From a virus (lineage: Duplodnaviria; Heunggongvirae; Uroviricota; Caudoviricetes), in the IMG/VR virus record IMGVR_UViG_2711768009_000006: 45,689 nt of DNA. One strand, 5' to 3'. The translations under genes and the position numbers were made by a program. The notes under the pieces were generated by a model. The model searched no databases. It saw nothing but the letters and a program-made list of their open reading frames with translations, and had not been told where the DNA came from. Below are positions 13,194-34,561 of the stretch, piece after piece; the first letter of the stretch is position 1, and the number at the start of each line of letters is the position of its first letter.

Positions 13194-13217
13194 CAAAAAA
13201 ACACGCTGGCGCGTGTT
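13194..13217 (-). terminator. Rho-independent terminator ending the minus-strand repA-downstream operon
   Basis: Read on the minus strand: stem AACACGC / GCGTGTT with loop GCCA, followed by a run of 7 U. Confidence 0.6.
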
Positions 13218-14643: not shown

Positions 14644-17600
14644 AGAAAGCGCCCTGCTCTTCGTAGCTGCATGAGCTATTCCCCGTAATGTATTCACGTA
14701 ACCGCCGCAGCTCATTGCTGGAAAGGTGATCCATGAACTCTGTGAGGTACAGGGATGCAAACGTCATAGCTATGCTGGCTGATGACCATGATGACATAGT
14801 GGCCAACTCCTCACTGGAAAGCGCACTCATCGCCCAGGACTCAGGTACAGCCACTGGCAACACGGCCAAAGCCTCAGAAATTACTGAATGAGGGGCGTTT
14901 TGAACCTGCTCGTTTGTGGATCGCGTTTTATCATCCATATATATATTGAGATCCAAATCGCGATCCATTTCGATGGCTGTCTTCTCGGCTTTACGCGTTT
15001 TTAGGGTTAGGCCATCTTTCTGACGCTGAACAAGAATATCCAGCATAAATGCCGCTGATTCAGGCTCAACAAAACGCAAGGTTGGACGCTTATCGCCGTC
15101 TCTGCCGCGACGTTTACCTGTTTTAAGGCCAAGAGAGTCGCAAATGTTTTTAAACAACGCTTCCGGCACTTTAGGCTTCCCTTTTGGCGTCATAAAACCA
15201 CCAATGTGCAGAACGTTATTCAACAGGTCACGGCGTTCGGCTGTCATGAGGTTATCTCGAGCGAATTTGAGACGCTCCTGAGTCGCCTCGCCGGTCATAG
15301 TCTCAGGGTTGATACCGCAGTCGATAAAGTACTGCCGGAGAGTTGCTGATTTAAGCGCATAGAAACCGCGCGCCCCGACTTCAACAGTAGGAGTAGCTTT
15401 TACCTTGTGATCGATTATTCCAGGGAATTTAGTTTTAAAGACATCATCAGCCTGCTCGCGAGTCATCGCGGTCACTACAAAATATTGCCACTGTCCCGCC
15501 TGACGGTATGCGTAGGTAAAATTGATGGCTGCTTCTTCCCGGTCGTAACGACGAGCTGTTACCTCATCTAAAAGCATTGTTTCATAGCGGCGAACTTTGT
15601 CTCGAGCACCATCGAAATAGAATTTCAGCGTGCCTTCTTCAACCGGTAGTTTCAGTTCGTTTTCAATATCCCAGCGGACAAGTTTTGCCTGTTCTTCAAG
15701 CGTCAGCGCGCGTTTTTTTAGCAGTTCTTCACGCTCTGATTCTTGTGGAGTTTCTGTATTGAGGTGCAGATCCAGTGTCTGTTCCCACACAATATCCCGC
15801 GCTTCTTTACGCAGATCTTTACCGATATCATTCGCAGCATAATCGGTGGCCAGCGGTGATACCTTATAACCGTCGCTGTGCATGATGCAGATCATGTTGC
15901 TGGCGTAGTCGTTACGCGCAGTCGCTTCAATTGCGGCTGCTTTAATTTTCATCCTGGTAAAGTCGGTATTGGCCACCCCCATTGATATACGGTCGCCATC
16001 GAAAACGACATCCGTAAGTTCACCGTTCATACCTGCGGTAGCAAGCAATGCCTGGGCGAATGCTCGTTCTATTTTTTGCGGGTCAGTTTCACGTTTTGCA
16101 CGAGCTTTATCAAAGCCGATAATAAATTCTTTTGCTGTACGGTCGCGGCGTAGCATTTGCACTGCGTCGCTGGGTACAACTTCACCACAGAACATGCCGA
16201 AATGACGGTCAAAATGTTTTTGCTCAATCGACACGCCGGATGAAATAGACGGGCTATAAATCAGGCCGTCGTATTTTTTGACCATCTTTTTCGGTTGATT
16301 GGTAAATGCTTCAACTTCTGGCTCTGGTTTGTTTTTCTGGTTTACACACAGAAATTTCTTACCAGGAAAATGCATTCTCAGGGTGGCTGTCACATCTTCT
16401 GCAAAGGTGGAGCTGTCGGTGGCCAACATGATTTTTTCGCCATCCGATACAGCTTTCACCACCTCGGTCATGATGCGATCTTTTTCTGTATAAAAAACCC
16501 GGATTGGCTCACCTGTTTCGCGGTTGCGAACATCAACAGGTAATTCAATTACGTGGATCTGCAGCCATGCCGGTAAACCTAGTTCTTCACGGCGTTTCAT
16601 AGCCAGTTCAGCCAGGTCAACCAGTAGATCGTTCGCATCAGCATCCACCATGATTGGGTGTTGTTCCGTTCTGGCCAGCGCGTCAATTAGCGTATTGAAT
16701 ACAGCAACCGGGTTTTCCATAGCCCGACCGGAAAGAACGGCACGTAGCCCTTGTGTGGCCTCGTCAAAGCCAAAATAGTCGTGCTGGCGCATCAACGGTT
16801 GCCAGCAGTTTTTAACAATCGAGTTTATGCAGATGGTCAGTTTACTGGCGTATGGAGCCATTTCCTGATAGCCAGGGTCCTGATAGTGCAGGATATCGGC
16901 TTTTACACCTTTTCCTTCTGTCATCATTTCCCACAGGCCACCAATAAGGGAGACACGGTGAGCAACAGAGATACCACGTTCTGAGCTATGCATTAACGGT
17001 CGTAACAATCCAGTAGATTTGCCGGAACCCATACCAGCACGGACGATGACTATCCCCTGTAGTGATTGCACGTACTTCAGGACATCATCGGTCATTACCG
17101 AAGTTTCAAAACGCTTATAGGTGATATGTTGAGGGCGTTTATTGGGATCAGTTATGCGTTCGCTGAAAGAGCGCGGAGCCTGGGCAATACGGCACTTTTT
17201 ATTCAGGCGACGGGCAATGTGGTCTTTTACCGTAGCGCGATAGATATTTTCCAGTCCCATTTCACGCAGAACGATGCAGAACATGTTAAATAAATCTGAC
17301 GGACTGTTAGGAACCGGACAGGTTAGCATGCCAATATCCACCGCTCTCAGCAGCTCTTTGGCAAAAGTACGACGGTTATCCCGCTTAATTGTCTTCAGGC
17401 GGTTGAGCGTCAGAGATAGCAAATCAGTACCGGTTTTCAGGCGGTTTGCTGTTGCAAATAGTTGACGTGCTGTTTCACGAAGTCCACGTAGTTTGTGCAG
17501 GTCGTTGAAGTCACTGCACTCCATTTGCGGATCGTCTTCAAAAGTTGGATAGACGCAGCGGACATCGTTGAATTTCGATAAGATTTCATAGCCAGTCCGC

Positions 17601-18631
17601 AGGCCGGTATTCCCTTTTCCTTCTGTGGCAGATTTCCGGTCATTATCCAGTGCGCAGGTGATTTTTGCCGCCGGGTACATGTTTACCAGTTGTTCCACAA
17701 CATGAACCATGTTGTTAGCGGATACAGCGACAACCACAGCGTCAAAGCGTTTATCTTTTTTCGTGGCAAGCCAGATGGATGCACCAGTAGCAAAACCTTC
17801 TGTAACAGCGATGTTTTGCGCCCCTTTCAGCTCACCGATAACAAAGCAGGCACCGACGAAATCACCGCTGGTTACTGCGCTGGTCTGGTATTTCCCACCT
17901 TGTTTGTCGATTCGCTGCCAACCCACAATACGACCATCATAACGACCGTCCAGGTGAGCCAGAGGGATAGCCATATATGTGGTTGGCCCCCGGCTCCATT
18001 TCGCACTGTCGTGACTGGTCACGCGACGCACATCACATGAACTAAAAACGTCACGAATACCTTTTTTAATCGCATATGGCCATGAGCCGTCTTCAGCCTG
18101 AGCATGTTCCCACGCGCTGTGGAATGCCAGCCATCCCAGCAAACGTTCATGGTCCATTTGGTTGTTTTTCAGATCATTAATTCGTTTTTGTTCTTCACGG
18201 CGACGACGTGCTTCGGCCTGACGTTCTATTCTTTCCCGTTCTTCTTCTGGTTGTGCGACCACGGTCGCATTATTCCGTTGTTGCTCACGGCGATATTCAG
18301 AAAACAGGAAGGAGAAACCGCTCCATGAGCCAGCATCGCTGCCTTTATGGACGAAGTTAATGAACGGGTAATCAATCCCTTTGCTGTGTTCCAGCCTGGA
18401 GTAAATTTCTACGCGTCCTTTCAGGCTCTTTTCGAGAGCTTCTGGAGATGTTTTATTGTATGAAGAGTAACGCTCAACCCCTCCGCGAGGGTTGAGTTGT
18501 ATGTTGTCGGAACAGGCAGGCCAGTTGATACCAGCCATCTGTGCCAGCTCGGTTAGTTCATCCCGTGCTGCTTCAATTAGCGAGAACGGATCGCTGCCAA
18601 AGCGATCCGCATAGAAATCGTTTAATGTCAT
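14636..18631 (-). CDS. repA: Replication initiator RepA (primase plus helicase multidomain protein)
   Basis: 1331-aa ORF; Walker A AGMGSGKST in the C-terminal half; size and position next to cB match N15 RepA. Confidence 0.93.
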   Translation of the reverse strand: MTLNDFYADRFGSDPFSLIEAARDELTELAQMAGINWPACSDNIQLNPRGGVERYSSYNKTSPEALEKSLKGRVEIYSRLEHSKGIDYPFINFVHKGSDAGSWSGFSFLFSEYRREQQRNNATVVAQPEEERERIERQAEARRRREEQKRINDLKNNQMDHERLLGWLAFHSAWEHAQAEDGSWPYAIKKGIRDVFSSCDVRRVTSHDSAKWSRGPTTYMAIPLAHLDGRYDGRIVGWQRIDKQGGKYQTSAVTSGDFVGACFVIGELKGAQNIAVTEGFATGASIWLATKKDKRFDAVVVAVSANNMVHVVEQLVNMYPAAKITCALDNDRKSATEGKGNTGLRTGYEILSKFNDVRCVYPTFEDDPQMECSDFNDLHKLRGLRETARQLFATANRLKTGTDLLSLTLNRLKTIKRDNRRTFAKELLRAVDIGMLTCPVPNSPSDLFNMFCIVLREMGLENIYRATVKDHIARRLNKKCRIAQAPRSFSERITDPNKRPQHITYKRFETSVMTDDVLKYVQSLQGIVIVRAGMGSGKSTGLLRPLMHSSERGISVAHRVSLIGGLWEMMTEGKGVKADILHYQDPGYQEMAPYASKLTICINSIVKNCWQPLMRQHDYFGFDEATQGLRAVLSGRAMENPVAVFNTLIDALARTEQHPIMVDADANDLLVDLAELAMKRREELGLPAWLQIHVIELPVDVRNRETGEPIRVFYTEKDRIMTEVVKAVSDGEKIMLATDSSTFAEDVTATLRMHFPGKKFLCVNQKNKPEPEVEAFTNQPKKMVKKYDGLIYSPSISSGVSIEQKHFDRHFGMFCGEVVPSDAVQMLRRDRTAKEFIIGFDKARAKRETDPQKIERAFAQALLATAGMNGELTDVVFDGDRISMGVANTDFTRMKIKAAAIEATARNDYASNMICIMHSDGYKVSPLATDYAANDIGKDLRKEARDIVWEQTLDLHLNTETPQESEREELLKKRALTLEEQAKLVRWDIENELKLPVEEGTLKFYFDGARDKVRRYETMLLDEVTARRYDREEAAINFTYAYRQAGQWQYFVVTAMTREQADDVFKTKFPGIIDHKVKATPTVEVGARGFYALKSATLRQYFIDCGINPETMTGEATQERLKFARDNLMTAERRDLLNNVLHIGGFMTPKGKPKVPEALFKNICDSLGLKTGKRRGRDGDKRPTLRFVEPESAAFMLDILVQRQKDGLTLKTRKAEKTAIEMDRDLDLNIYMDDKTRSTNEQVQNAPHSVISEALAVLPVAVPESWAMSALSSEELATMSSWSSASIAMTFASLYLTEFMDHLSSNELRRLREYITGNSSCSYEEQGAFYG
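18254..18269. promoter_or_regulatory. SopB-type centromere-like palindrome TGCGACCACGGTCGCA (inside the repA 5' coding region)
   Basis: 7-bp inverted arms TGCGACC/GGTCGCA with a 2-bp centre; encodes NATVVAQ in RepA; same architecture as the recalled F sopC core TGGGACCACGGTCCCA. Confidence 0.55.
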
Positions 18632-18754
18632 TTTTTAGCCATTCCATGCGAATTATGTTTTTTCGGGTTGAAAAAATCCGCAGGAGCAGCCACAATAAAC
18701 GCATCTTGAATTGACGGAATCCGTCGCGTTACTGTGGCTGCTTCCTGAAAAGGA

Positions 18755-18782
18755 CCCGAGTTTGCCGACTCGGGTTTTTTTT
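18755..18782 (+). terminator. Strong plus-strand rho-independent terminator in the repA upstream region
   Basis: CCCGAGT-ttgccg-ACTCGGG followed by 8 T; no plus-strand coding gene lies upstream. Confidence 0.6.
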
Positions 18783-18876
18783 CGTCTTTTTTCTGCTGCT
18801 GTAACCTGAGTCAACCCACAGAACATATGCCCTGCATTAAACCAGATTTACAGCAAACAATAAACCCCGTATTAAG

Positions 18877-19473
18877 TCATCTACCCTCAACCATGAATGA
18901 TTTGATCGTTCCGACTATTTGGTGAACAAATTCAAGATCGCTTTTCCTGAAGATGGCGCGTTGTGAGTTTGTTCCATCCAGATAGTAATTTTCATCATCA
19001 AAACGGGCCAGGCGCTGGATAGTGATATTTCCTGCAGTATCACGAACCAGAACATCCTCGCCGGGGACCAGTTCCAGCGCAGAATCGACCAGGAGAAAAT
19101 CGCCTGGCTGATAGTTTCCCTGCGTAAGATTGCTGATAGTTAACGCATACACAGTATTGCGCTGGCTGATGAATGGCAGGAATCGCTCAGTATTTGGAAC
19201 CTGTCCCGGCTTCCACTCTTCATCCGGCCCACTTTCAGTTGTGCCAATAACAGGAATGCGATCAGGGTCATATTCTGTCCCATATAGCACCCAATGCACT
19301 GGCTTGCGTAAGCACTTAGCCAGGGCAATACCTATCTCCAGTGACGGCATTACGTCGCCACGTTCTAAGTTTTGGACGCCTGCTATAGAGATATCGACAG
19401 CCTCAGCAACTTCTCGCAACGTCAGCTTCATCTCTAAACGGCGTGCTTTCAGTCGTTCGCCTCGTGTTTTCAT
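18877..19473 (-). CDS. cB: Prophage repressor CB (CI/LexA-like)
   Basis: 198-aa ORF with N-terminal HTH (LTLREVAEAVDISIAGVQNLERG) and a C-terminal domain of CI-like size; divergent from cro with operators between. Confidence 0.88.
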   Translation of the reverse strand: MKTRGERLKARRLEMKLTLREVAEAVDISIAGVQNLERGDVMPSLEIGIALAKCLRKPVHWVLYGTEYDPDRIPVIGTTESGPDEEWKPGQVPNTERFLPFISQRNTVYALTISNLTQGNYQPGDFLLVDSALELVPGEDVLVRDTAGNITIQRLARFDDENYYLDGTNSQRAIFRKSDLEFVHQIVGTIKSFMVEGR

Positions 19474-19495
19474 ACTGTAATCATAAATGATCTTC

Positions 19496-19511
19496 TTATA
19501 GCTGGCTATAA
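19496..19511. promoter_or_regulatory. Putative CB operator O1 (perfect 16-bp palindrome)
   Basis: TTATAGCTGGCTATAA in the cB-cro intergenic region. Confidence 0.6.
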
Positions 19512-19521
19512 AATTTATTTA

Positions 19522-19537
19522 TTATAGCTGGCTTTAA
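19522..19537. promoter_or_regulatory. Putative CB operator O2 (imperfect copy)
   Basis: TTATAGCTGGCTTTAA, 26 bp centre-to-centre from O1; a perfect TATAAT lies at 19553-19558 just before the cro ATG. Confidence 0.55.
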
Positions 19538-19564
19538 TTATTGTTTATTGTTTATAATAACAAC

Positions 19565-19786
19565 ATGAAACCAGAAGAACTTATTCGCCATTTTGGCAGT
19601 GTAGAAAAAGCAGCGGCAGGGGTAGGTGTAACACCCGGAGCTGTTTACCAATGGTTAACCGCTGGAGAGATTCCTTCATTGCGGCAAAGCGATATTGAAG
19701 TTCGTACTGCTTATAAGCTGAAGAGTGACTTTACAACTCGGCGGGTAAAGCAGTCGATTAAGGAGAGTCGTAAGCGTGGAGCTTGA
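19565..19786 (+). CDS. cro: Cro-like transcriptional regulator
   Basis: 73-aa HTH protein (GVGVTPGAVYQWLTAGEIP) divergent from cB. A TATAAT 6 bp upstream with no SD suggests a leaderless or short-leader mRNA; the track's upstream TTG start at 19541 is an alternative. Confidence 0.7.
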   Translation: MKPEELIRHFGSVEKAAAGVGVTPGAVYQWLTAGEIPSLRQSDIEVRTAYKLKSDFTTRRVKQSIKESRKRGA

Positions 19787-20486
19787 GTATATACGCAGCT
19801 GCGTCTCTACGGCATTGGCTGATGTTCATTATCGCCAGCGTGGCATTCTGGAGGTCCAGCTTGAGCAGATGCGTCTCGGTAGATCAGGACGGTTTAACAA
19901 TAAACCAGTCCGGTCAATCAGTGTGGGGGATGATAACTCATACGAAGTGTCCGTTCCTGCTGAGCCGGTTAGATTCCATCAGGGGAAAACATTTAAACAA
20001 TCATCAATGTTGCTCACTGATATTGATTTTCAGAGCGCCAGCTGGCGCAGGGCTATTGGTCAGTTGAATAACGAGGAATCAGCCTGGCTTTATTATTGCT
20101 ACGGATGCAAGCCTGATTACAACAATGATGTGATTGTTTGTCAGTGGTTATGGCTTGATTTTCTGGTTGCTCATTCGGGGGGCGGCTTTAAAAAAATGAA
20201 GGCCTCCACGAAAAAAGCCATGCGGAAATTGATTTATTACGCGGCACAACAGGTTAAATCAGAACTTACGTGTGCTGAGGCAGTTGATGAGAGAGAACAG
20301 GACAGGCATCTGAGTTTTCTACTGAATATATCTATTGATAGCTGGAGACAAGATTATAAAGAACGCTGGCTTTTAATTAAGTCGCGATGTCTGAGCTTAA
20401 ATCGAACCGCATTATTAAATGCGGCGGAGAAGCGCAGTGAAATCATCAAACGCCATCGGGCAGGAAGTGCCATTCTGCCTTTGTAA
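19776..20486 (+). CDS. Putative late-gene regulator (Q-like antiterminator, assigned by synteny only)
   Basis: 236-aa ORF with GTG start overlapping the cro stop; the cB-cro-Q order is known for N15; I recognise no diagnostic motif. Confidence 0.35.
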   Translation: MELEYIRSCVSTALADVHYRQRGILEVQLEQMRLGRSGRFNNKPVRSISVGDDNSYEVSVPAEPVRFHQGKTFKQSSMLLTDIDFQSASWRRAIGQLNNEESAWLYYCYGCKPDYNNDVIVCQWLWLDFLVAHSGGGFKKMKASTKKAMRKLIYYAAQQVKSELTCAEAVDEREQDRHLSFLLNISIDSWRQDYKERWLLIKSRCLSLNRTALLNAAEKRSEIIKRHRAGSAILPL

Positions 20487-20493
20487 ACAAGTT

Positions 20494-20739
20494 ATGTTCA
20501 GGAAACCGTCGAAGCCAGAATTAAGGTATTCGGGGGTAAGAAATGAATATGTTATTTGGTGTCCAACTTGTGGTTACAGGACACGACCAGATAGTAATAA
20601 GCAGTCTGTAATTGCCGATTGGTATTTATCAAATCAGCCAGGTAATAAGCATATAGAAAATCTTTGGATTAAGCGTTACTTGGAAATCAGAGAGGGTGCG
20701 ACCGTGGTCGCACAAGAAAATGAAAATAACGCCATTTAA
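20494..20739 (+). CDS. Small Zn-ribbon-like protein (81 aa)
   Basis: Internal ATG of the track ORF; C-x2-C motif (CPTCG) with upstream CLC; contains a centromere-like palindrome in its coding sequence. Confidence 0.4.
   Translation: MFRKPSKPELRYSGVRNEYVIWCPTCGYRTRPDSNKQSVIADWYLSNQPGNKHIENLWIKRYLEIREGATVVAQENENNAI
20697..20712. promoter_or_regulatory. SopB-type centromere-like palindrome TGCGACCGTGGTCGCA
   Basis: Same 7-bp arms as the other sites; encodes GATVVAQ. Confidence 0.55.
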
Positions 20740-20923
20740 GCAGGGGCCGATGACGCATGATGAAGCAGAGCGTCTTTCAGATACTTATCGGCGGCGTGGT
20801 AAGAAAGTTCTGGTTGTTCGTTCTGATTTTTTAGGTGATGGATATTGCGTTTATGTTCATTTACCTGAATCAGAAAGAACGCCAAAACCATCCAGAACAT
20901 ATCAACAGAAAATTTGGGTATAG
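20720..20923 (+). CDS. Hypothetical protein (67 aa)
   Basis: ORF MKITPFKQGPMTHDEAERL...; overlaps the preceding gene. Confidence 0.3.
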   Translation: MKITPFKQGPMTHDEAERLSDTYRRRGKKVLVVRSDFLGDGYCVYVHLPESERTPKPSRTYQQKIWV

Positions 20924-20988
20924 ATAAACGTTGAGGAGAATTATTCGTGACTAATCAGATTATTTACGACAGGAAACGGTCTGATGTA

Positions 20989-21546
20989 ATGATTGATCTT
21001 GAAACAATGGGTACTAACACATGTGCTCCAATTGTTTCTATCGGGGCAGTGTTTTTTTCTCCAGAAAGTGAGGAATTAGGTCCTACTTTTTATGTGCCAG
21101 TGAATCTCAGAAGCTCGATGTTGAATGGTGGTATCGCCGATGGTGATACCATTTTATGGTGGTTGAAACAGAGCAAGGAAGCCAGAGCCGCTATTTGTAC
21201 TAATGATGCCCTTGATATTAAGGATGCACTTTTTGAATTATCACACTTTATTACTTGCCATGCATGTAATTTAAAAAAGTTGAAAGTATGGGGAAATGGA
21301 GCAACGTTCGATAATGTAATTTTACGCGGTGCTTATGAGCGCGTTGGCTTAGCCTGTCCGTGGGAATATTTTAATGATCAGGATGTTCGAACAATCGTTA
21401 ATCTTGGTCAGTTTATTGGTTTTAATCCTAAAAAAGATATGCCATTTGATGGCGAACGACACAATGCCCTGGCTGATGCTATTCATCAGGCTAAATATGT
21501 ATCCGCAATTTTCTCCCGTCTTGTAAAAGGGCAAGGAGAATCGTAA
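20989..21546 (+). CDS. DnaQ-like 3'-5' exonuclease (DEDDh family)
   Basis: MIDLETMG (Exo I D-x-E), WGNGATFDNVILR (Exo II) and HNALADAIHQA (Exo III H-x4-D) motifs; ATG at 20989 has SD AGGAAACGG; the track's GTG at 20947 is an alternative start. Confidence 0.7.
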   Translation: MIDLETMGTNTCAPIVSIGAVFFSPESEELGPTFYVPVNLRSSMLNGGIADGDTILWWLKQSKEARAAICTNDALDIKDALFELSHFITCHACNLKKLKVWGNGATFDNVILRGAYERVGLACPWEYFNDQDVRTIVNLGQFIGFNPKKDMPFDGERHNALADAIHQAKYVSAIFSRLVKGQGES

Positions 21547-21965
21547 TGGCAAAGGCTTTTACACCAGAACAGAGGGAAGAACTGAATAAACAAATTGTGG
21601 AACTCGTGCGCCTGAATGGACGAGGAACGGTTAGGCAACTTGCGGATGAAACTGGTATTAGCCGGTGTGCTGTTAGTCGTTTATCAAGAGAGCTTGCTGC
21701 CAGTGGTGATTTGTATATCTCTGGCTCCGGGATATTTCTGTCTGCACAAGCACGCAAGGACTGGCAAAACGCCCGTAAAAAACTATCAAGAGTAAAGCCG
21801 AAGAAATCGGTAGTTGTTGATCCTGACCTTATCTGGTCATTACCTGATGGAGAAATACGTCGTTATGACAGGCGCTTGAACATGATTTGTCACGATTGTC
21901 GGAAGAGCGAAGTTATGCAGCGTGTGTTGGCGTTTTATCAGGGAAATTTTCAGGAGGTGGCGTAG
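21546..21965 (+). CDS. Putative HTH DNA-binding protein (139 aa)
   Basis: ORF with HTH-like segment TVRQLADETGISRCAVSRLSREL. Confidence 0.5.
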   Translation: MAKAFTPEQREELNKQIVELVRLNGRGTVRQLADETGISRCAVSRLSRELAASGDLYISGSGIFLSAQARKDWQNARKKLSRVKPKKSVVVDPDLIWSLPDGEIRRYDRRLNMICHDCRKSEVMQRVLAFYQGNFQEVA

Positions 21966-22255
21966 TGAATATCGACACCACGATAACGATCGATACGGCC
22001 CTAAATACCGGTCTGGCACTTCTCGGTTGGTTTTACATCATGTTCAGTGCGGGGAAGTGGGCGGCCTCTGTTTTTCTAAAGCAGTGGGGAAAGCGCCGCA
22101 AACAGGAAAAACGCCAGAAAGCGTTGGAGGCGTTCTATGACGCATTTGAACTTAGCCGCATTGAGCCAGGCACAACAGCCAAGATAGCGACAAAAGGCGA
22201 CCTGATGATAGTGATGTTCCGACAGGAGAGAGCAGAGAAAGGTGAATCAGCATGA
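21965..22255 (+). CDS. Hypothetical membrane protein (96 aa)
   Basis: GTG start preceded by SD AGGAGG; hydrophobic helix LALLGWFYIMFSAGKWAASVFL; overlaps neighbours in operon fashion. Confidence 0.4.
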   Translation: MNIDTTITIDTALNTGLALLGWFYIMFSAGKWAASVFLKQWGKRRKQEKRQKALEAFYDAFELSRIEPGTTAKIATKGDLMIVMFRQERAEKGESA

Positions 22256-22926
22256 AATTTTCTAAATTTTCTGAGTTGGTGAATCGTATTTTGTTGAATC
22301 GTATTTTGTCCAACAACCACAGCGATCGTCGCGATATGGATGTAACGATCGTTGTTCATTCGCCTGGCAGCATTGGTTCAACACCTTCAGTTGAGGTTCA
22401 GTCAATTCACGCTGGTTTTGATTGGGATTCCGGGAAAGTGCTGATTTTCCCAGCACAGCCACTGACCACGCTAACACCAGAACAGATTACTGATATCACG
22501 GATAGTGTGCGCAAAGGTCAGTCTTGGCACGCATATCAGGAATACAAGAAGCATAAAGAGCAGTTGGAAAAATTGTCGATTGAGTTGGAATCAGCCAAAA
22601 ATCACATAGCAGAACTGGAAGCCAAACCTGTAAGCCAAACTTACAAGTTAACTTTTGAGCAATGGCTGGAACAGCAGCATGACAAAATTGATGTTGATTG
22701 TGGATGTGTAAGTACAGAAATGCTTATGCACTGGATAAGGGTCGCGTATGAGGCTGGCAACTCTCCGGTAACTCCGGATGGTCATATTCAGTTTTCTGTT
22801 TCACTTCCTGCAGCATGTGGTGGAGATAAATATTTTATTGATGGTGTATTTCAACCTTTGAGATATGAGCGTGACTGTGAAAAAGCGGTTGTGGCCGCTG
22901 GCGGTGTAGTTAATTGGGTTAAGTAA
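22252..22926 (+). CDS. Hypothetical protein (224 aa)
   Basis: ORF with SD AAGGTG; no recognised motif. Confidence 0.5.
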   Translation: MKFSKFSELVNRILLNRILSNNHSDRRDMDVTIVVHSPGSIGSTPSVEVQSIHAGFDWDSGKVLIFPAQPLTTLTPEQITDITDSVRKGQSWHAYQEYKKHKEQLEKLSIELESAKNHIAELEAKPVSQTYKLTFEQWLEQQHDKIDVDCGCVSTEMLMHWIRVAYEAGNSPVTPDGHIQFSVSLPAACGGDKYFIDGVFQPLRYERDCEKAVVAAGGVVNWVK

Positions 22927-22941
22927 TTTTCAGGAGGATTT

Positions 22942-23268
22942 ATGGCGCTGACAGCTGCAGAACGGCAAAGGAGACGCAGGGAACGGTTGAAGAAGGAAGG
23001 CACATCAAGACGGGACTGGATTCTGGAACCTGACGAGCTACGTATGTTGGGGGAAATTTGTGTATTGCGTAGACCGGGACGAGTTCCATATTCAGAGAAT
23101 GAAGTCATCGGTCTGCTGATCAGGAAAAACTATAAGGAGCTGCAGAAGCAGCTATCTACTACTTGCCCGCGATGTGGTCAGAAAATGCCTGTTTCAGAAT
23201 GTATTTTTGATGGTGAAGGCTCATGTCACCTTACAACTACGAGGCTGAAACTTGTGCTCAAAGTGTGA
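22942..23268 (+). CDS. Hypothetical protein with C-terminal Cys cluster (108 aa)
   Basis: ORF with SD AGGAGG; CPRCG ... C ... C pattern. Confidence 0.45.
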   Translation: MALTAAERQRRRRERLKKEGTSRRDWILEPDELRMLGEICVLRRPGRVPYSENEVIGLLIRKNYKELQKQLSTTCPRCGQKMPVSECIFDGEGSCHLTTTRLKLVLKV

Positions 23269-23469
23269 CTGGTCACGGAATGATAAATAAACAAAAAGGC
23301 ATAGTTTTTGAAATGATGAGAAAACGAAGCGAAAAGAGTTTTTCTTATGGTGATGATGGGCTTCTGTAGGTGGTTGAGTGAGGCGTAGGAAGAGAACATA
23401 AGTATCGGACTACAAAGCTATTAACCCTGTTAATCCATTGAAAGTTGGCTATAAAATTTGAGTTTTACC

Positions 23470-23485
23470 CTGTAATTTTATACAG
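23470..23485. promoter_or_regulatory. Putative LexA (SOS) box
   Basis: CTGT-aattttat-ACAG fits CTGT-N8-ACAG with an AT-rich spacer, 24 nt upstream of the 23510 ATG; a partial CB-operator-like sequence TGGCTATAAAATTT lies at about 23446-23459. Confidence 0.6.
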
Positions 23486-23509
23486 TATCAAATAACCTTT
23501 TTTAATTAA

Positions 23510-23728
23510 ATGGTATTAGATTCAATGACTGAAGCATCTGTATCAACTCTTGAAGAACTCGGATCAAACCTAAAAGACATCGACGCCGTTTTGGATCTGG
23601 TTAGCGTTGCTCTGGCTTCTCCCGAAGCTAGCTTGCATCTTGGCGAGATTTCACGGCTTGTTAGTATGTCGCGGGAGATTGCTCAGAATTGCCAACAAGC
23701 GATTGCTGTGGAGTGTTTACATCATTGA
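23510..23728 (+). CDS. Small acidic protein, candidate SOS-inducible antirepressor
   Basis: 72-aa ORF directly downstream of the LexA box and operator-like half-site; no SD; function inferred from context only. Confidence 0.4.
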   Translation: MVLDSMTEASVSTLEELGSNLKDIDAVLDLVSVALASPEASLHLGEISRLVSMSREIAQNCQQAIAVECLHH

Positions 23729-23771
23729 TACACACCCCGCCCTTCTGGACGGGGTAGTGAAAAGTGATTAA

Positions 23772-24059
23772 TCAATAGACGGCATTAATATTAATTGTTG
23801 CGCCACATGCTTGGGCATATTTTGATAAAGTTTTCATGCTTGCCCCTAAAGGATTGCTTTCCAGGCGGCTGATGGCGGACGGGCGCAATCCCATTCGTTC
23901 TGCCAGAGCTGACTTCGTTAAACCTGCTCTTTCCCTCATTTCGTATAACATTTCGACCATCTCCAGTTCTTTATCGGCCTCTTCATATCCTTTGATAGCT
24001 TCTGGAGTGTTGAGTAGTTTTTCCTTTACTTCGTTAAACGGGATGCCTTTTGCTTTCAT
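23772..24059 (-). CDS. HTH (XRE-family) antitoxin, HigA-like
   Basis: 95-aa HTH protein (LTKSALAERMGLRPSAISRLE); start overlaps the toxin stop (ATGA); sits downstream of the toxin as in higBA. Confidence 0.75.
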   Translation of the reverse strand: MKAKGIPFNEVKEKLLNTPEAIKGYEEADKELEMVEMLYEMRERAGLTKSALAERMGLRPSAISRLESNPLGASMKTLSKYAQACGATININAVY

Positions 24060-24370
24060 CAGTTCATCTCCTTCAGGCGAGTTCTGGCGATTTCTATAGC
24101 CTTTACTGGTGTTTTCTGTGTCTTTTTTACAAATGCATGCAATAGATAAATTTCGTTACCAGTCGCGTAGGCGTATAGCGTTCTTGCGATGTTTTTATCC
24201 CCTACTCTTAGTTCAAAGAGTCCTCCGCCTATTACACGGCTATGGGGCATCTTAAGTTTGTTTCCCTCTTTCTCCAGTCGTTCAATTAGCCTGGTCATGC
24301 GACCTCGCAGATCGTCTGGTAGTTCAAGCAGTTCATCCAGTGCTGCAGGGTGGGTTATCACGTTAAACAT
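24059..24370 (-). CDS. RelE/ParE-superfamily toxin (HigB/Gp49-like)
   Basis: 103-aa ORF from the ATG with perfect SD GGAGG (MFNVITHPAALDEL...); size, basic character and pairing with an HTH partner. Confidence 0.75.
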   Translation of the reverse strand: MFNVITHPAALDELLELPDDLRGRMTRLIERLEKEGNKLKMPHSRVIGGGLFELRVGDKNIARTLYAYATGNEIYLLHAFVKKTQKTPVKAIEIARTRLKEMN

Positions 24371-24533
24371 ATTATAGCCTCCTAACGCGCAAAATACACC
24401 AAAACGAGAAAACAAAGCAAATATAAAATTTCACCAAAAAGTGAAAATAACACTGGATGTGTTCTTTTGGCAGAGTTACAGTTCGTGTTGTTGAGGGGGA
24501 TAACCCACTAACTATATGAATTTCGAGGATATT

Positions 24534-24755
24534 ATGAATTATCAAGGTAACGAAAAAATGCGCGGCGACGTTGCGGAGATAGCTAACGAATTGTATGAGT
24601 TGTGGCAGAAGGTTGAACGTTTCGAAAAGGAATATGGTTTCAACAGTACCAACCTGACAGACCGACTGGCTGGCCGCTTAATTGGGACTATGGGGCCAAA
24701 ACTGGCTGAGTTGAACCGCTTTATGGCTGATGTTGATTTCCAGTTTCAAGATTGA
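24534..24755 (+). CDS. Hypothetical protein (73 aa)
   Basis: ORF with SD GAGGA 5 nt upstream of the ATG at 24534. Confidence 0.4.
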   Translation: MNYQGNEKMRGDVAEIANELYELWQKVERFEKEYGFNSTNLTDRLAGRLIGTMGPKLAELNRFMADVDFQFQD

Positions 24756-24768
24756 TTAGAGAGGCGTT

Positions 24769-24996
24769 ATGAATATTAATGAAATTCGTGGAAATATGAC
24801 CGAAGCGGCCCTGAGTGTGGAATGTGTTATGCGTGGATATCCACGCATTTCCTTGAAAGAGTTAAGCGAAGCCTGTTTTTTGAGTCAGGCTGCCGTTGAA
24901 TTTATCATCGAACAGATGATCTGTTTTGGGGTTGCAAAGCGTAGCGGGTCTGGTCGATATTCTTTGACCGATGAATATAAGCAGGCAACTTTCTAA
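24769..24996 (+). CDS. Hypothetical protein (75 aa)
   Basis: ORF with SD GAGAGG. Confidence 0.45.
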   Translation: MNINEIRGNMTEAALSVECVMRGYPRISLKELSEACFLSQAAVEFIIEQMICFGVAKRSGSGRYSLTDEYKQATF

Positions 24997-25002
24997 AAAC
25001 TG

Positions 25003-25018
25003 TGCGACCACGGTCGCA
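25003..25018. promoter_or_regulatory. SopB-type centromere-like palindrome TGCGACCACGGTCGCA (intergenic)
   Basis: Extended 20-bp palindrome TGTGCGACCACGGTCGCACA immediately after a stop codon. Confidence 0.6.
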
Positions 25019-25103
25019 CAGCACAAAAACGAAAAAGCTTGGCAAAATGACGGTTTTTAGTTATTGTTTTGTTAAGTTGGGTTTTTTGTACCCAATAGCC
25101 AAC

Positions 25104-25128
25104 AAGCCGCCTTTATGGCGGTTTTTTT
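25104..25128 (+). terminator. Terminator-like hairpin in the structured region upstream of the methyltransferase
   Basis: AACAAGCCGCC-tttat-GGCGGTTT followed by more T; flanked by further hairpins at about 25077-25095 and 25146-25171. Confidence 0.45.
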
Positions 25129-25263
25129 GTGCCTGAAAAGTGGGCGCAGGACAAGTTGCAGCTTGTCCTGCGGTCAACCCATGCCAGAGCTATAGGCTGA
25201 ACCTAAAGCCCACCCGCGATGCGCATCGCTGGGTTAGCTTACCCAGGCAAAAAAATAATAGCT

Positions 25264-26340
25264 ATGTTCAAAACCACTAATATTCATGGCGCACAACTCG
25301 TTTGCGCAGATTCTCTGCAATTTATCAAAACCATCCCTGATAACTCGGTCAATTTGATTGCAACAGACCCACCATACTTCGGCGTAAAGGCTAACGCATG
25401 GGATAACCAGTGGGATAGCGATGCTGACTTTTTGGGGTGGATTGACGAATTTTTGGCAGAATTTTGGCGGATATTGGCCCCTAATGGCAGCCTGTATATG
25501 TTTACCGGCTCTCGCCTTGCGTCAAAAATTGAATTATTAACTCGCGACCGTTTCAATGTTCTGAACCATATCATTTGGGCTAAACCCAGTGGTATGTGGC
25601 GCGGTTGTCATAAAGAAAGTTTAAGGGCTTATTTTCCTGCTACTGAAAGAATATTATTTGCAGAGCATTACGGCGCGTCAGGTTATGCTAAAGGTCAGTC
25701 AGGTTATGCTTCAAAATGTGCAGATTTAAGAAAAAATATTTTTTCTCCACTAATTGATGCTTTTTCGCTGGCTCGCCGTCAGTTAGATATATCAGCCGCA
25801 GACATTAATTCAGCGACAGGAAAGCAGATGTGTTCACACTGGTTTTCTTATTCGCAGTGGCGGCTTCCATCATTAATTGATTTTAATAAACTATGCGAAT
25901 TATTTCGCAGGAAGGCAGATTCACTCGGTGTCCCGTGTCCATATCCTTTTAATGTTGATTATTCAGAACATGAAAAGCGTTATAGCGATCTGAAATTGCA
26001 TTATGAGGAAGTAAAGAAGCAGTATGATGATTTGAAGGCTCAGTATGAAAGTTTACGCCGTCCATTTCATGTTACTGCTGATGTACCTTATACCGATGTA
26101 TGGGAGTTTCCTCCTGTGCAATATTATCCTGGCAAGCACCCATGTGAAAAACCTGCAGCGATGATGGAACATATTATAAAGAGTAGTTCACGCCCCGGAG
26201 ATATCGTTGCCGATTTCTTTATGGGATCAGGCTCAACTATTAAAGCTGCGCTGAAGTTAGGACGTCAGGCAATAGGTATTGAGATTGAGGGCGAGCGTTA
26301 TCTTCAGACAGTTGATGAAGTGAAAAAGTTATTTGAGTAA
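25264..26340 (+). CDS. DNA methyltransferase (amino-MTase, N6-adenine or N4-cytosine), apparently orphan
   Basis: DPPY motif (IATDPPYFG) near the N-terminus and AdoMet motif FFMGSGST near the C-terminus; no adjacent restriction endonuclease; alternative start at 25219. Confidence 0.85.
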   Translation: MFKTTNIHGAQLVCADSLQFIKTIPDNSVNLIATDPPYFGVKANAWDNQWDSDADFLGWIDEFLAEFWRILAPNGSLYMFTGSRLASKIELLTRDRFNVLNHIIWAKPSGMWRGCHKESLRAYFPATERILFAEHYGASGYAKGQSGYASKCADLRKNIFSPLIDAFSLARRQLDISAADINSATGKQMCSHWFSYSQWRLPSLIDFNKLCELFRRKADSLGVPCPYPFNVDYSEHEKRYSDLKLHYEEVKKQYDDLKAQYESLRRPFHVTADVPYTDVWEFPPVQYYPGKHPCEKPAAMMEHIIKSSSRPGDIVADFFMGSGSTIKAALKLGRQAIGIEIEGERYLQTVDEVKKLFE

Positions 26341-26435
26341 CTGGAGAATATATTCCCCTGCCGTTTTTGGTAGGGGTTATTTTCACCATATAGTTTCCAA
26401 GCCGAAACCTCAGCAACTATTGCGAGGTAAGAGAT

Positions 26436-26708
26436 ATGAAGATGGATGAACGATACAGCAGTGCATCTTATGGTAGCGCTGGTCTTGCTGCGTTCTTTGC
26501 CAGCCTGTCATTGCAGGATTGGGGCTTCATTATCGGTGTCGCGTTCAGCATTATCCTCGGTGTGCTTACATACCGGCTCAATAAACGCGAGCAGATGAAG
26601 CGCACGAAGATATTGCAGGACATATTGGATAAAACTAATACCAATAATCTTTCTGCTACAGCGATGGTTATTGGAGAGCTGGGGAAGAGAGCACCGAAGG
26701 AAATATGA
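26436..26708 (+). CDS. Pinholin (P21 S21-like), possible dual-start MKM
   Basis: 90-aa protein with two hydrophobic segments ([33 protein letters not shown]) resembling recalled P21 pinholin; immediately precedes a SAR endolysin. Confidence 0.75.
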
Positions 26709-27205
26709 TGCAGTCATCATTACGCAAAGCTGTCACAGCTGCTATTGGTGGCGGGGCTATTGCCATAGCGTCTATGCTCATCACTGGCCCAAGTGGTAAC
26801 GATGGTCTGGAAGGTGTCAGTTACATACCATACAAAGATATTGTTGGCGTATGGACTGTATGTTACGGGCACACTGGAAAAGACATCATGCTCGGTAAAA
26901 CGTATACCGAAGCAGAATGCAAAGCTCTCCTGAATAAAGACCTTGCCACTGTTGCCAGACAAATTAATCCGTACATCAAAGTCGATATACCGGAAACAAC
27001 GCGCGGCGCTCTTTACTCGTTCGTTTACAACGTGGGCGCTGGTAATTTCAGAACATCGACGCTTCTTCGCAAAATAAACCAGGGCGATATCAAAGGCGCA
27101 TGTGATCAGCTACGTCGCTGGATATATGCTGGCGGTAAGCAATGGAAAGGCCTGATGACTCGTCGTGAGATTGAGCGTGAAGTCTGTTTGTGGGGTCAAC
27201 AATGA
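26705..27205 (+). CDS. SAR endolysin (T4-lysozyme-like muramidase, P21 R21-like)
   Basis: N-terminal signal-anchor-release segment [23 protein letters not shown]; catalytic E-x8-D-x5-T in [16 protein letters not shown]; start overlaps the holin stop. Confidence 0.88.
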
Positions 27206-27669
27206 GCAGGGTAACCGCGATTATCTCCGCTCTGGTTATCGGCATCATCGTCTGCTTGTCGTGGGCTGTTAATCATTACCGTGATAACGCCATCGCCTAC
27301 AAAGAGCAGCGCGACAAAAACGCCAGAGAGCTGAAGCAGGCGACCGCCACCATTACTGACATGCAGCAGCGCCAGCGTGCTGCTGATGCACTCGATGCTA
27401 AATACACGAAGGAGTTAGCCAATGCGAAAGCTGAAAATGATGCTCTTCGGCGTAAGCTTGATAATGGTGGTCGGGTGCTCGTCAAAGGAAAATGCCCTGT
27501 GCCAGCCTCAGCCAAAACCTCCAGCGCCTCCGGCATGGGCAATGATGCCACCGTCGAACTCTCTTCAGTTGCTGGACGAAACGTTCTCGGTATCCGGGAC
27601 GGAATTATCCGCGACCAAACAGCACTGAGAACGCTTCAGGAATACATCAATACGCAATGCCTGAATTAA
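27202..27669 (+). CDS. Rz: i-spanin Rz
   Basis: [45 protein letters not shown]... matches recalled lambda Rz in the N-terminal half; TM anchor plus coiled coil. Confidence 0.85.
27422..27628 (+). CDS. Rz1: o-spanin Rz1 (lipoprotein embedded in the +1 frame of Rz)
   Basis: [21 protein letters not shown] with lipobox VVGC and a Pro-rich mature part ([11 protein letters not shown]); fully nested inside Rz. Confidence 0.75.
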
Positions 27670-27710
27670 TCCCTCTGTATCAAAAACGAACTCAATTTGT
27701 TGGATAGTGA

Positions 27711-28022
27711 ATGAAAATTTATATTGCCGGGCCAATGACGGGATATGAGAACTTTAATCGTGACGCCTTTAATAAAGAGGCAGATCGTTTGTCACGACAT
27801 GGTCACTCTGTCTTGAATCCAGCCACTTTGCCTAATGGTCTGACACAACGTGAATACATGGATATTTGCTTTGCAATGCTTCGTTGTGCGGATGCTATTT
27901 TGATGCTTCCTGGCTGGAAAGCGTCTGCTGGAGCAACTGCTGAGTATCATTACGCATACAAGATGGAGATGCCGGTATTCACTACGCTGAATTACCCGCC
28001 AGCTTGTTCCTCTGCAGTATAA
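27711..28022 (+). CDS. Small Rossmann-like protein (nucleoside 2-deoxyribosyltransferase-like / DUF4406-type)
   Basis: MKIYIAGPMTGYENFN ... LMLPGWKASAGATAEY pattern typical of this phage-associated family (from memory). Confidence 0.55.
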   Translation: MKIYIAGPMTGYENFNRDAFNKEADRLSRHGHSVLNPATLPNGLTQREYMDICFAMLRCADAILMLPGWKASAGATAEYHYAYKMEMPVFTTLNYPPACSSAV

Positions 28023-28042
28023 AAATCTCTTTGTTTCTCGTG

Positions 28043-28058
28043 TGCGATCGTGGTCGCT
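28043..28058. promoter_or_regulatory. Degenerate centromere-like palindrome TGCGATCGTGGTCGCT
   Basis: Two mismatches relative to the other sites; 12 bp upstream of direct repeat A. Confidence 0.3.
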
Positions 28059-28069
28059 CGCTAAATTCC

Positions 28070-28280
28070 GCGCTGCATCGTCGCCGTATTCCCGCATTAA
28101 CTATGACCGTAGCCCGACGGGGAACTCCTCTGCGCGAGTGTGCGGAAATAATCAAAAACGATGCACACCGGGTTTTTACCGCGCTAATGATTCGCGGGTT
28201 TGTCCCTCATGCTCGCTAGTCCTGTGCGAGGGTGGAAGAAACAGGGCATGTATTCAGGAGCGTGCGACCGTGGTCGCACG
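28070..28280 (+). repeat. 211-bp direct repeat, copy A (left flank of the two-gene cassette)
   Basis: Aligns without indels to 29854-30064 with about 10 mismatches; ends in the centromere-like palindrome. Confidence 0.9.
28263..28278. promoter_or_regulatory. SopB-type centromere-like palindrome TGCGACCGTGGTCGCA (end of repeat A)
   Basis: 25 bp upstream of the cassette gene start codon. Confidence 0.6.
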
Positions 28281-28302
28281 GTATCTTTGTCAGGAGGTTT
28301 TG

Positions 28303-29163
28303 ATGAAAGAGTTGCAAAAAATTAATTCAATAATGGAACGATTAATTGCTCTTGAGCTTAAGCTGGCCGATTGCGGAAAACTGTGTGCTGAAAAGCAAAA
28401 TGAGCTTTACCGGGAATTTGTTACAATCGTAAGTGAGCTGATGCCAATTGTTAATAACTGCCTAATGACATCCATATTTTTTAATGTCGATGCTACTACA
28501 TCCAGAAAATTTACTGTGAAAATTCAAGAAAGAGTTTCTGGTAGTGTGACAAGAGAGATGGCTGAACAGTTTGTGGCAATGAGTAATAAAACAAAAAGAA
28601 AAAAGGCATTGCTTGTAACAGTAAATCAGCTTTCAGGGCGCGTTGACTTTCAGGTCAGACAGGGTGGGCGTGTACTGGTAAACGATGCGTTCGTTGGACG
28701 TTGCTTTAGTCCTTACTCGATGAAATATGATGTTGATGCAGATGATCAGGATATCAGCATTTCCTGGAAATCTGAGACAGCAGGGATTGTATTAACAGCA
28801 GAGTTGTTGAGTGATGATAAAAATGATGGCCAGCATCATTTGGACGAAAAAAATCATATTTCTGAAATTTGTATGAAGCCACGTAGTGGAATGACTTTAT
28901 TGTCGCGAACTCTTGCTGCTGGCTTTTCTGCAACGGAGAAACGTGTGCTTCTGGTAGTGCCTGAAGATGCAGATATTCGTCCACTGAATGGCTGTGATGT
29001 TATTAGTGCAAAAACATTGCATACCCGCATCATGCCTGTACCGGATGTGGTCATCATTGATGATATTGAGAAATGCAAGTCTGTTTCCTCAACTGCCACA
29101 ATCAAACGAATTTTACGTTGTAGCACGTCGGCTGTTGTATTCCAGAAGCAGTTACATAACTAA
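28303..29163 (+). CDS. Hypothetical cytoplasmic protein (286 aa), cassette gene 1
   Basis: ORF from the ATG with strong SD AGGAGG (MKELQKINSIMERLIALELK...); AT-rich codon usage unlike the lambda-like genes; no recognised motif. Confidence 0.6.
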   Translation: MKELQKINSIMERLIALELKLADCGKLCAEKQNELYREFVTIVSELMPIVNNCLMTSIFFNVDATTSRKFTVKIQERVSGSVTREMAEQFVAMSNKTKRKKALLVTVNQLSGRVDFQVRQGGRVLVNDAFVGRCFSPYSMKYDVDADDQDISISWKSETAGIVLTAELLSDDKNDGQHHLDEKNHISEICMKPRSGMTLLSRTLAAGFSATEKRVLLVVPEDADIRPLNGCDVISAKTLHTRIMPVPDVVIIDDIEKCKSVSSTATIKRILRCSTSAVVFQKQLHN

Positions 29164-29287
29164 CCAGTTTTGTTTTGCAGAACATCCTCAACTAAAAGCT
29201 TATAGAAAGAGAGCCAGAGATATTTTTTTTCTGTCTCTCGTAGTTGTTTATTTTTTCGAACAGGCTTACAACTTACAGGATATATAC

Positions 29288-29737
29288 ATGCAAGAAGAAG
29301 CAAAGAAAATTCTTGTTGATTTATTGAACAATGCCAGCGATGGAATTGATTCCGCCATTGCATTCAGTCAGGCTCAGATTCCGGATGTTGTTCATCAGTT
29401 GCTGGTATGGAATATAGTTGATAGCCTGATTAAAACATTAATAGCCATTTCAACAATCCCGCTGGTTATTTGGTTTATGAAGAAACAGTGCAAAAAAGTT
29501 GAAATTGGTAAGTTCGATAATGACGGACGCTCATGTGATAATGGACAGCCTAAATACAAACCGACTATGATTTGGGAAAGTGACGGTAGGTTAAGTGCTT
29601 TTGTCTTACCATTAGTAGCAGTTTTTATTCTATGGTTAAGTTTTATTATTTCTATAGTAGCCAATATGACATGGTTAAAAATCTGGCTGGCACCTAAGTT
29701 ATATCTAATCGAATACGCAGCATCACTAATTAAATAG
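29288..29737 (+). CDS. Hypothetical two-helix membrane protein (149 aa), cassette gene 2
   Basis: Internal ATG of track ORF 28988..29737; hydrophobic helices LIKTLIAISTIPLVIWFM and AFVLPLVAVFILWLSFIISIVANMTW; start choice uncertain. Confidence 0.5.
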   Translation: MQEEAKKILVDLLNNASDGIDSAIAFSQAQIPDVVHQLLVWNIVDSLIKTLIAISTIPLVIWFMKKQCKKVEIGKFDNDGRSCDNGQPKYKPTMIWESDGRLSAFVLPLVAVFILWLSFIISIVANMTWLKIWLAPKLYLIEYAASLIK

Positions 29738-29853
29738 CCCATTACAAAAGCCATTCGCTACTGAGTGGCTTTGATAATGGCTTATACCCTACACGGGATA
29801 ACTTAACTAATATCCCTTTTAACGGATAAAGGTATTCAAGCCTGACACATTAT

Positions 29854-30064
29854 GCGCTGCATCGTCGCCGTATTTCCGCATTAACTATGACCGTAGCCTG
29901 ACGGGGAACTCCTCTGCGCGAGTGTGTGGAAATAATCAAAAACGATGCATACCGGGTTTTTACAGCGCTAATGATTCGCGGGTTTGTCCCCCATGCTCGC
30001 CAGCTCTGTGCGGGGGTGGAAGAAACAGGGCATGTATTCAGGAGCGTGCGACCGTGGTCGCACG
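29854..30064 (+). repeat. 211-bp direct repeat, copy B (right flank of the two-gene cassette)
   Basis: About 95 percent identical to 28070-28280; ends in the centromere-like palindrome. Confidence 0.9.
30047..30062. promoter_or_regulatory. SopB-type centromere-like palindrome TGCGACCGTGGTCGCA (end of repeat B)
   Basis: Identical to the site at 28263-28278. Confidence 0.6.
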
Positions 30065-30119
30065 ACGCTGGTCTGTCAGACATTGAATTCATTGCGAATA
30101 AACCAGAACGCCTGCGGGT

Positions 30120-30854: not shown

Positions 30855-30880
<26 letters not shown>
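30335..30880 (+). CDS. Nu1: Terminase small subunit Nu1
   Basis: 181-aa ORF MEVNKKQLADIFGASIRTIQNWQEQGMPVLRGGGKGNEVLYDSAAVIKWYAERD..., near-identical to recalled lambda gpNu1. Confidence 0.95.

Positions 30881-34561
<3,681 letters not shown>

Follow-up and report, generated by a model that had tools for sequence, protein, structure and literature searches.

The window analysed here is the whole 45,689-nt stretch of IMG/VR record IMGVR_UViG_2711768009_000006. Judged from its genes, it is an N15-family linear plasmid prophage and a close relative of N15: Pfam domains identify a protelomerase with all four TelK/ResT domains, SopA, SopB, a CB-like repressor and a Q antiterminator. Over most of the genome its identity to Escherichia phage PhiR46_1 is ~96%; it is 98% identical to YDC107_1 over their common parts and ~76% identical to N15 over the repA-cB-cro-Q and late-promoter region. 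Its nearest relative among complete E. coli genomes is the plasmid pAH01-1 (NZ_CP055252.1), in which sopAB is 99.9% identical. Dispersed along the window are copies of a 16-bp palindrome, TGCGACC-NN-GGTCGCA (pattern TGCGACCNNGGTCGCA), and these palindromes, as candidate SopB-binding centromere sites, are the subject of what follows.

A pattern scan of the whole window recovered TGCGACCNNGGTCGCA exactly five times (Table 1) and, with up to two mismatches allowed, once more (TGCGATCGTGGTCGCT, beginning at 28043), giving a total of six against 0.14 expected. None of 100 dinucleotide-preserving shuffles contained an exact match, and the expected number was 0. A preliminary description of this DNA, made from the sequence alone, had listed the same six coordinates and had called for an exhaustive scan with up to two mismatches; all six positions proved correct, as did the contexts it gave (one site in repA, one in a small open reading frame (ORF), one intergenic and two at the ends of repeats), and the frequency of the motif is well above chance. 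Relaxing the scan of the window to three mismatches added only the matches at 19257 and 41495, which is the chance level (~2). Free half-sites are likewise absent from the window because all nine of its GTGCGACC octamers fall within the five perfect palindromes. In an unbiased listing of all perfect 7-2-7 palindromes of the window, TGCGACC is the sole recurring arm, an artefact of an N run aside, and the centre of every site is purine-pyrimidine (AC or GT). Neighboring sites are 0.2-4.3 kb apart, and their distance to sopB is 8-20 kb.

Orthology to the N15 centromere sites

The core of the window sites, (G)TGCGACC-NN-GGTCGCA(C), is identical to that of N15. The natural N15 sites IR1 to IR4 all read (G)TGCGACCnnGGTCGCAC, and the corresponding oligonucleotides were used to build an artificial, working N15 centromere (PMC7205306, Table 4). 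Foci of N15 SopB form on such an IR-built centromere; F SopB is non-functional with N15 sites, and the specificity of N15 SopB is relaxed (PMC7205306). The repA site of N15 is sufficient by itself when sopAB is supplied in trans, yielding a functional centromere with a loss of <0.1% per generation (PMC2847241). In N15 itself, this core recurs at four places: 33480, within gene 37 (repA); 35931, past gene 40 (Q); 41125, which precedes the late-promoter -35 hexamer by 21 nt; and 45562. At the same landmarks, the GenBank record of the Klebsiella phage phiKO2 lists four "putative plasmid partitioning sites"; one is at the position equivalent to 20697, and the third lies 20 nt before the -35 of the "putative late promoter". 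The N15 sites were reportedly described by Ravin and Lane in 1999 and by Grigoriev and Lobocka in 2001, and phiKO2, it is said, by Casjens and colleagues in 2004.

Palindrome-anchored alignments paired each of the first three window sites with a single N15 site. The flanks of 18254 are 77% (left) and 72% (right) identical to those of IR1, and the flanks of 20697 are 79% and 57% identical to those of IR2, whereas against the other IRs neither rises above the background of ~25%. The right flank of 25003 is 53% identical to that of IR3 in an ungapped alignment and gave a high gapped score; its other pairings are again at ~25%. The site in repA is found at the same codon position in N15, phiKO2, Enterobacter phage MStein-2023a (hereafter MStein) and PY54, and IR3 is separated from the -35 hexamer TTGGCA by 20 nt in both the window and phiKO2 and by 21 nt in N15, where the -35 is annotated at 41162. 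The 16-bp site itself is 88-100% conserved among the window, N15, phiKO2 and MStein, and 94-100% in the case of the IR1 to IR3 orthologues, as against 34-80% for the 45-nt flanks. On the strength of these alignments, the sites at 18254, 20697 and 25003 are inherited orthologues of IR1, IR2 and IR3, and, by homology with the annotated features of N15 and phiKO2, the DNA adjoining IR3 (25039 to 25124) is a putative Q-dependent late transcription start region.

The site at 28043 had been regarded in the preliminary description simply as a degenerate copy. Its position stood, and PhiR46_1, YDC107_1 and the plasmids pZ1323HEC0355-3 and p19KM1803_4 all hold a perfect site at exactly the equivalent spot, and it is thus a true, but decayed, orthologue of IR4; in phiKO2, N15 and MStein, IR4 follows a homologous gene block (the DUF4406/methylase block). 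The two changes in the window copy are at position 6 of the left arm and position 1 of the right arm, and both are found, identical, in pAH01-1. Of these two, position 6 is the critical one in the F sopC arm, whereas position 1 is of minor importance (PMC3177203); the decayed site is therefore predicted to be weakened, probably to roughly half-site strength.

The arrangement of the window also resembles that of N15 as a whole. Single sites are all on the repA-Q-late side of the telomere site, with IR1 in repA, IR2 after Q, IR3 20-21 bp upstream of the late -35, and IR4 after the DUF4406 block; the sopAB operon adjoins telRL, and the recognition-helix residues of SopB are the same. The window differs from N15 in having six sites (five of them perfect) rather than four, in the decay of its IR4 orthologue, and in two extra sites, one at the end of each copy of the 211-bp direct repeat that encloses a moron cassette. 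Its structural module is lambda-type and 95-98% identical to E. coli lambdoid prophages, whereas its N15-type part is ~76% identical to N15. PhiKO2 agrees with the window in carrying this 16-bp sequence at all four landmarks, but its perfect sites number exactly four, it lacks repeat-borne duplicates, and its structural module is HK97-like. Among the closer relatives, pAH01-1 has the same six sites, including the two mutations of IR4, whereas in PhiR46_1 (PV340565.1) and YDC107_1 IR4 is perfect, the 30047 site is missing and the second repeat copy is truncated. Dispersed centromeres of this type are already established in N15 and annotated in phiKO2, and the window is a further instance. What is new is modest: the decayed IR4, the repeat-borne extra sites, the covariation of recognition helix and site when PY54 is included, and orphan sites in chromosomal prophages.

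Covariation of SopB and its site

F SopB reads sopC through R190, K191 and R195 of its recognition helix (ISRKIITR), plus R219 (PMC3597684, PMC3177203). The SopB of the window matches the chains of the F SopB crystal structure with E=2.4e-38; the fold and the arginine equivalent to R219 (in LSAR) are conserved, but the helix reads IDRNIITR. The sites differ correspondingly between the two systems. Both are 7-2-7 palindromes with a purine-pyrimidine centre, and they agree at arm positions 2, 4, 5, 6 and 7, the critical ones in F; only position 3 differs, being G in F and C in all window copies, and the helix residues are SRK in F and DRN in the window. The preliminary description had likened the palindromes to the core of F sopC with a symmetric G-to-C change. 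The shared architecture and the change at arm position 3 were borne out, but the motif is not a new sopC variant because its sequence is exactly that of the known N15-type site. A clustered centromere of the F sopC type was also considered and rejected. In F, sopB is followed by 10-12 tandem repeats of 43 bp, but there is no such array in the window, where Tandem Repeats Finder detected no motif-containing array and hence no sopC-like cluster; arm position 3 also departs from the consensus TGGGACC-PuPy-GGTCCCA, although the purine-pyrimidine centre agrees with it.

The helix IDRNI accompanies TGCGACC sites in the window, N15, phiKO2 and PhiR46_1, whereas ISRKI accompanies TGGGACC sites in F and in the Yersinia phage PY54, whose partition system is SpyAB. 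PY54 resembles the window in having dispersed single palindromes, one of them at the same repA codons as IR1, but its sites are TGGGACC-NN-GGTCCCA (eight perfect and three near-perfect) and the SpyB helix is the F-like ISRKII. At those repA codons the PY54 peptide is GTTVP instead of ATVVA, and it is therefore the DNA site rather than the peptide that is conserved and that tracks the partner protein. The family thus provides a clean natural case of covariation between a ParB helix and its site, DRN with TGCGACC and SRK with TGGGACC, even within the same repA codons. In PY54, the perfect sites are at 508, 6566, 26513, 31240, 34394, 39870, 40976 and 44409, and the near-perfect ones at 22251, 30984 and 41121; their number is about twice that of the N15 group, and some are in the structural-gene arm.

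The proposal in the preliminary description that these are SopB-type centromere sites, used in the manner of N15, is strongly supported by the identity of the core, the presence of sopAB, the orthology of the flanks and the phiKO2 annotation. The palindromes very probably constitute the dispersed SopB-binding centromere of an N15-family linear plasmid prophage. The sequences themselves show the identity to the N15 sites, the orthologous placement, the cognate sopAB and the covariation of helix and site; binding by SopB, the share of each site in partition and any effect on transcription are what we infer from these comparisons. Dimers of the SopB encoded by the window would bind each 16-bp site with one helix-turn-helix per arm, occupying the five perfect sites and, weakly, the sixth at 28043. 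Further SopB would then load onto the flanking DNA to form partition complexes, which SopA would position such that each daughter cell receives a copy of the plasmid.

Table 1. Palindromic sites of the window and the features associated with them
Feature	Position	Strand	Remarks
IR1 orthologue	18254-18269		Exact match; inside repA, reading Ala-Thr-Val-Val-Ala on the repA strand
repA	14636-18631	minus	1331 amino acids; homologous to N15 gene 37
IR2 orthologue	20697-20712		Exact match; within the 3' end of the Lar-like ORF 20419-20739, ~210 bp downstream of Q, the antiterminator gene
IR3 orthologue (W3)	25003-25018		Exact match; intergenic, 20 bp upstream of the late-promoter -35 hexamer
Late-promoter-like -35/-10, TTGGCA-17-TATTGT	25039-25067	plus	Promoter scan
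Terminator-like hairpin after the late promoter	25104-25124	plus	Terminator scan
DUF4406 gene	27711-28022		Homologue of N15 gene 57 and phiKO2 gp58
Decayed IR4 orthologue, TGCGATCGTGGTCGCT	28043-28058		Two mismatches; 21 bp past the stop of the DUF4406 gene
Direct repeat, copy 1	28065-28280	plus	211-216 bp
Extra perfect site W5	28263-28278		Exact match; at the end of copy 1, with the ATG of the first cassette gene 25 bp downstream
Two-gene cassette between the repeats	28303-29163 and 29288-29737		PHROGs families of unknown function, phrog_2571 and phrog_3054
Direct repeat, copy 2	29849-30064	plus	94% identity with copy 1; cos and Nu1 lie just downstream
Extra perfect site W6	30047-30062		Exact match; at the end of copy 2, with the cos cleavage region ~80-90 bp downstream
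sopB	7835-8800	minus	Pfam SopB_HTH, E=7.7e-25; 73% identical to N15 SopB
sopA, ParA-type partition ATPase	8800-9966	minus	Pfam AAA_31 and CbiA; 93% identical to N15 SopA
Protelomerase	10541-12430		TelK/ResT domains

Direct repeats, cassette and number of sites

The palindromes W5 and W6 form the last 18 nt of their respective direct repeats. Each repeat consists of ~180 bp of a widespread lambdoid sequence followed by a tail of ~45 bp that contains the palindrome. In a survey of 5426 complete E. coli genomes, the ~180-bp core (28070-28250 and 29854-30034 in the window) was present in 3056, almost always in chromosomal lambdoid prophages, where its usual place is between the lysis genes and nohD/Nu1; in the DLP12 prophage of BL21, for instance, it adjoins ylcI. 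The palindrome tail is missing from most of them; only ~1.5% of the genomes with the ~180-bp element have the palindrome. W5 and W6 are extra sites, presumably of full strength and brought in with, or duplicated by, the 211-bp repeat bracketing the moron cassette. A coding role for the repeat was rejected, as ORFs 29850-30092 (minus strand), 29926-30195 and 28004-28219 have no Pfam match. Rfam gave no match over any of the sites or the 211-bp repeats, either across the whole window at gathering thresholds or across 27900-30400 at E<=1.

The slot between the repeats is variable. The two cassette proteins of the window have no match in Pfam or PADLOC; YDC107_1 and p19KM1803_4 carry a different gene, of 198 amino acids, in the same slot, and in pZ1323HEC0355-3 the slot is empty. 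W5 is present in PhiR46_1, YDC107_1, p19KM1803_4 and pAH01-1 and absent in pZ1323HEC0355-3, whereas W6 is shared, among the plasmids examined, by pAH01-1 alone. In PhiR46_1 and YDC107_1, the second repeat copy is truncated at the equivalent of window position 30024, just before the palindrome. The number of sites consequently ranges from four to six among close plasmid relatives, and it is fluid because the sites ride on a mosaic late-region module.

Sites in chromosomal lambdoid prophages

A pattern scan of IMG/VR found at least 157 sites in at least 120 DNA stretches; among the matches listed, the flanks were of the IR2, IR3, IR4, W5 and W6 types, and 40 sites were unclassified. Within the E. 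coli survey, a 79-bp probe spanning the 28263 site and its flanks had matches in 47 genomes, at 36 chromosomal and 15 plasmid places. Megablast detected window-type sopAB in only 15 of the 5426 genomes, nearly all on ~46-kb plasmids, although sopAB that had diverged beyond ~85% identity would be missed by this search. A chromosomal site and the sopAB plasmid were found together in one strain only, Z1323HEC0355.

One such chromosomal setting is an integrated lambdoid prophage of E. coli CUVM3 (NZ_CP116970.1, 1572058-1614198), which is 95-98% identical to the window over the Rz-to-tail module (27202-45689 and 1-3154). This prophage has lambda-type cI/cro/cII immunity, O/P-like replication genes and Q but no sopAB and no telN; it nevertheless has the same three sites, including the decayed one, at 20054, 20274 and 22058 of the extracted stretch. 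The degree of likeness indicates that the whole late module was probably exchanged recently between a plasmid prophage and an integrated prophage. Orphan sites were also located in four further chromosomal stretches, at positions 3042, 3041, 3043 and 3042 of the respective extracts, and the chromosomal copy in AVS0969 has one mismatch. In some chromosomal prophages the cassette is missing and the junction is of the 30047 type (repeat, palindrome and cos-proximal DNA). The chromosomal sites are always at the junction of the ~180-bp late-region element with a moron cassette or with cos.

Because the DUF4406-IR4 block is a feature of the N15 family, and because the palindrome is found in so small a fraction of the genomes that carry the element, the simplest reading is that lambdoid prophages would have acquired modules of N15-like plasmids by exchange, and that the orphan sites are what this left behind. 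It is conceivable, but very unlikely, that the orphans are functional "orphan centromeres" that would capture the SopB of an incoming or co-resident N15-like plasmid, or else a preferred recombination junction for the swapping of morons. If chromosomal capture of SopB did take place, it would disturb plasmid partition and thus amount to centromere-based incompatibility, or exclusion, between phages. The orphan sites in any case offer a small lead on how plasmid prophages and integrated lambdoid prophages recombine and, possibly, interfere with each other.

Partition and alternative readings

Two observations weigh against a partition role for the full set of sites. W5 and W6, together with their flanks, also occur in integrated prophages of genomes without detectable sopAB, and their presence alone therefore does not show selection for partition; in addition, pZ1323HEC0355-3 has the four canonical sites only, and the extra sites are therefore dispensable. 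A serious rival, though the less likely one, is that W5, W6 and the decaying site at 28043 are passengers of a DUF4406-cassette-cos module that recombines freely between N15-like plasmids and integrated lambdoid prophages. Such sites could bind SopB but would not be kept by selection for partition, and the functional centromere would then be IR1 to IR3, with the others redundant at most. The CUVM3 prophage, where all three of these sites, the decayed one included, are embedded in a nearly identical module without sopAB or telN, is consistent with passenger status, and so are the excess of chromosomal over plasmid places for the site and its flanks when sopAB is found in so few genomes, the variation in site number among close relatives, and the imperfection of both the AVS0969 copy and the IR4 of the window. 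Against it, W5 and W6 are perfect palindromes (16/16) with the optimal purine-pyrimidine centre and would therefore be bound whenever SopB was present, and at least one of these sites occurs in most of the N15-like E. coli plasmids examined. Work on centromere dispersion by Dorokhov, Ravin and Lane is said to have found that linear N15 derivatives are maintained more stably when they carry several sites.

A secondary idea of the preliminary description was that the sites may also damp expression of repA, the putative late region and the cassette; that they are mainly SopB-dependent operators or silencers of this kind is, in our judgment, unlikely. The conserved placement of IR3 just upstream of the late -35 in the window, N15 and phiKO2 would suit such a function, as would the closeness of W5 to the start codon of the first cassette gene, and spreading of ParB/SopB with silencing near centromeres is established for F and P1 (PMC7205306). 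However, IR3 falls outside the core promoter, its centre being ~63 bp upstream of the predicted start, and the sole N15 study of the question is, going by its title, one in which Sop facilitates late gene expression.

Even less credible is a function of the palindromes at the RNA level, as intrinsic terminators or stabilising hairpins rather than as protein-binding sites. Positions 28261-28280 were called terminator-like by a scan, IR4 is annotated as a putative rho-independent terminator in the N15 record, and all copies fold into GC-rich hairpins of 7-10 bp, but hairpin formation is a property of any palindrome. Only W5 (28263, plus strand) and W3 (25003, minus strand) are followed by a U-rich tail, and these tails are not conserved in the N15, phiKO2 and MStein orthologues; termination at IR1, inside repA, would be harmful. 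Moreover, it is the exact 16-bp sequence, not mere pairing, that is conserved and that covaries with the SopB recognition helix. A terminator or RNA-hairpin role was rejected on the grounds that the U tracts are inconsistent and unconserved, that one site is inside repA, and that hairpins are inevitable for palindromes. For annotation, the six sequences should be labeled SopB-binding centromere sites, neither terminators nor a new sopC variant.

Telomere, sopAB alleles and other features

The protelomerase gene of the window is accompanied by a telRL site, as in a linear plasmid prophage. A run of 24 N at 10314-10337, between sopA and the protelomerase gene, coincides with the telRL (tos) palindrome, of which only the right half is readable (10338-10360, CCCATTATACGCGCGTATAATGG), the remainder being masked by the N run. 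The matching point in PhiR46_1 is the telR/telL junction of the linear plasmid; the window is collinear with PhiR46_1, in which telL and telR are annotated.

The sopB gene is less similar to that of PhiR46_1 (43667-44656) than the genomes are overall, with 82-84% protein identity as against 95-97% for the rest. By megablast, the two are ~90% identical over 8121-10310, and the 3' 286 nt of sopB have no match. Two sopAB allele groups exist in E. coli plasmids (~99% and ~91% identity), and the 16-bp site is the same in both. The YDC107_1 record (CP025712.1) has an inverted duplication of the telN-repA arm and no sopAB, whereas sopAB is found on the chromosome record of that strain (NZ_CP025707.1); this layout suggests an assembly artefact around the hairpin telomere.

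Three RNA families were matched at Rfam gathering scores. C4 antisense RNA and isrK adjoin each other at 13084-13170 and 13196-13269, both on the minus strand; this is the anti-immunity RNA region of the P1/N15 type, which lies upstream of the icd/ant genes. The third match, IS009 RNA, is at 7570-7768 (plus strand), just downstream of sopB. A 132-bp tandem repeat (5657-6002; 2.6 copies, 78% matches) is contained in a tail-fibre-like ORF of 989 amino acids at 4258-7227.

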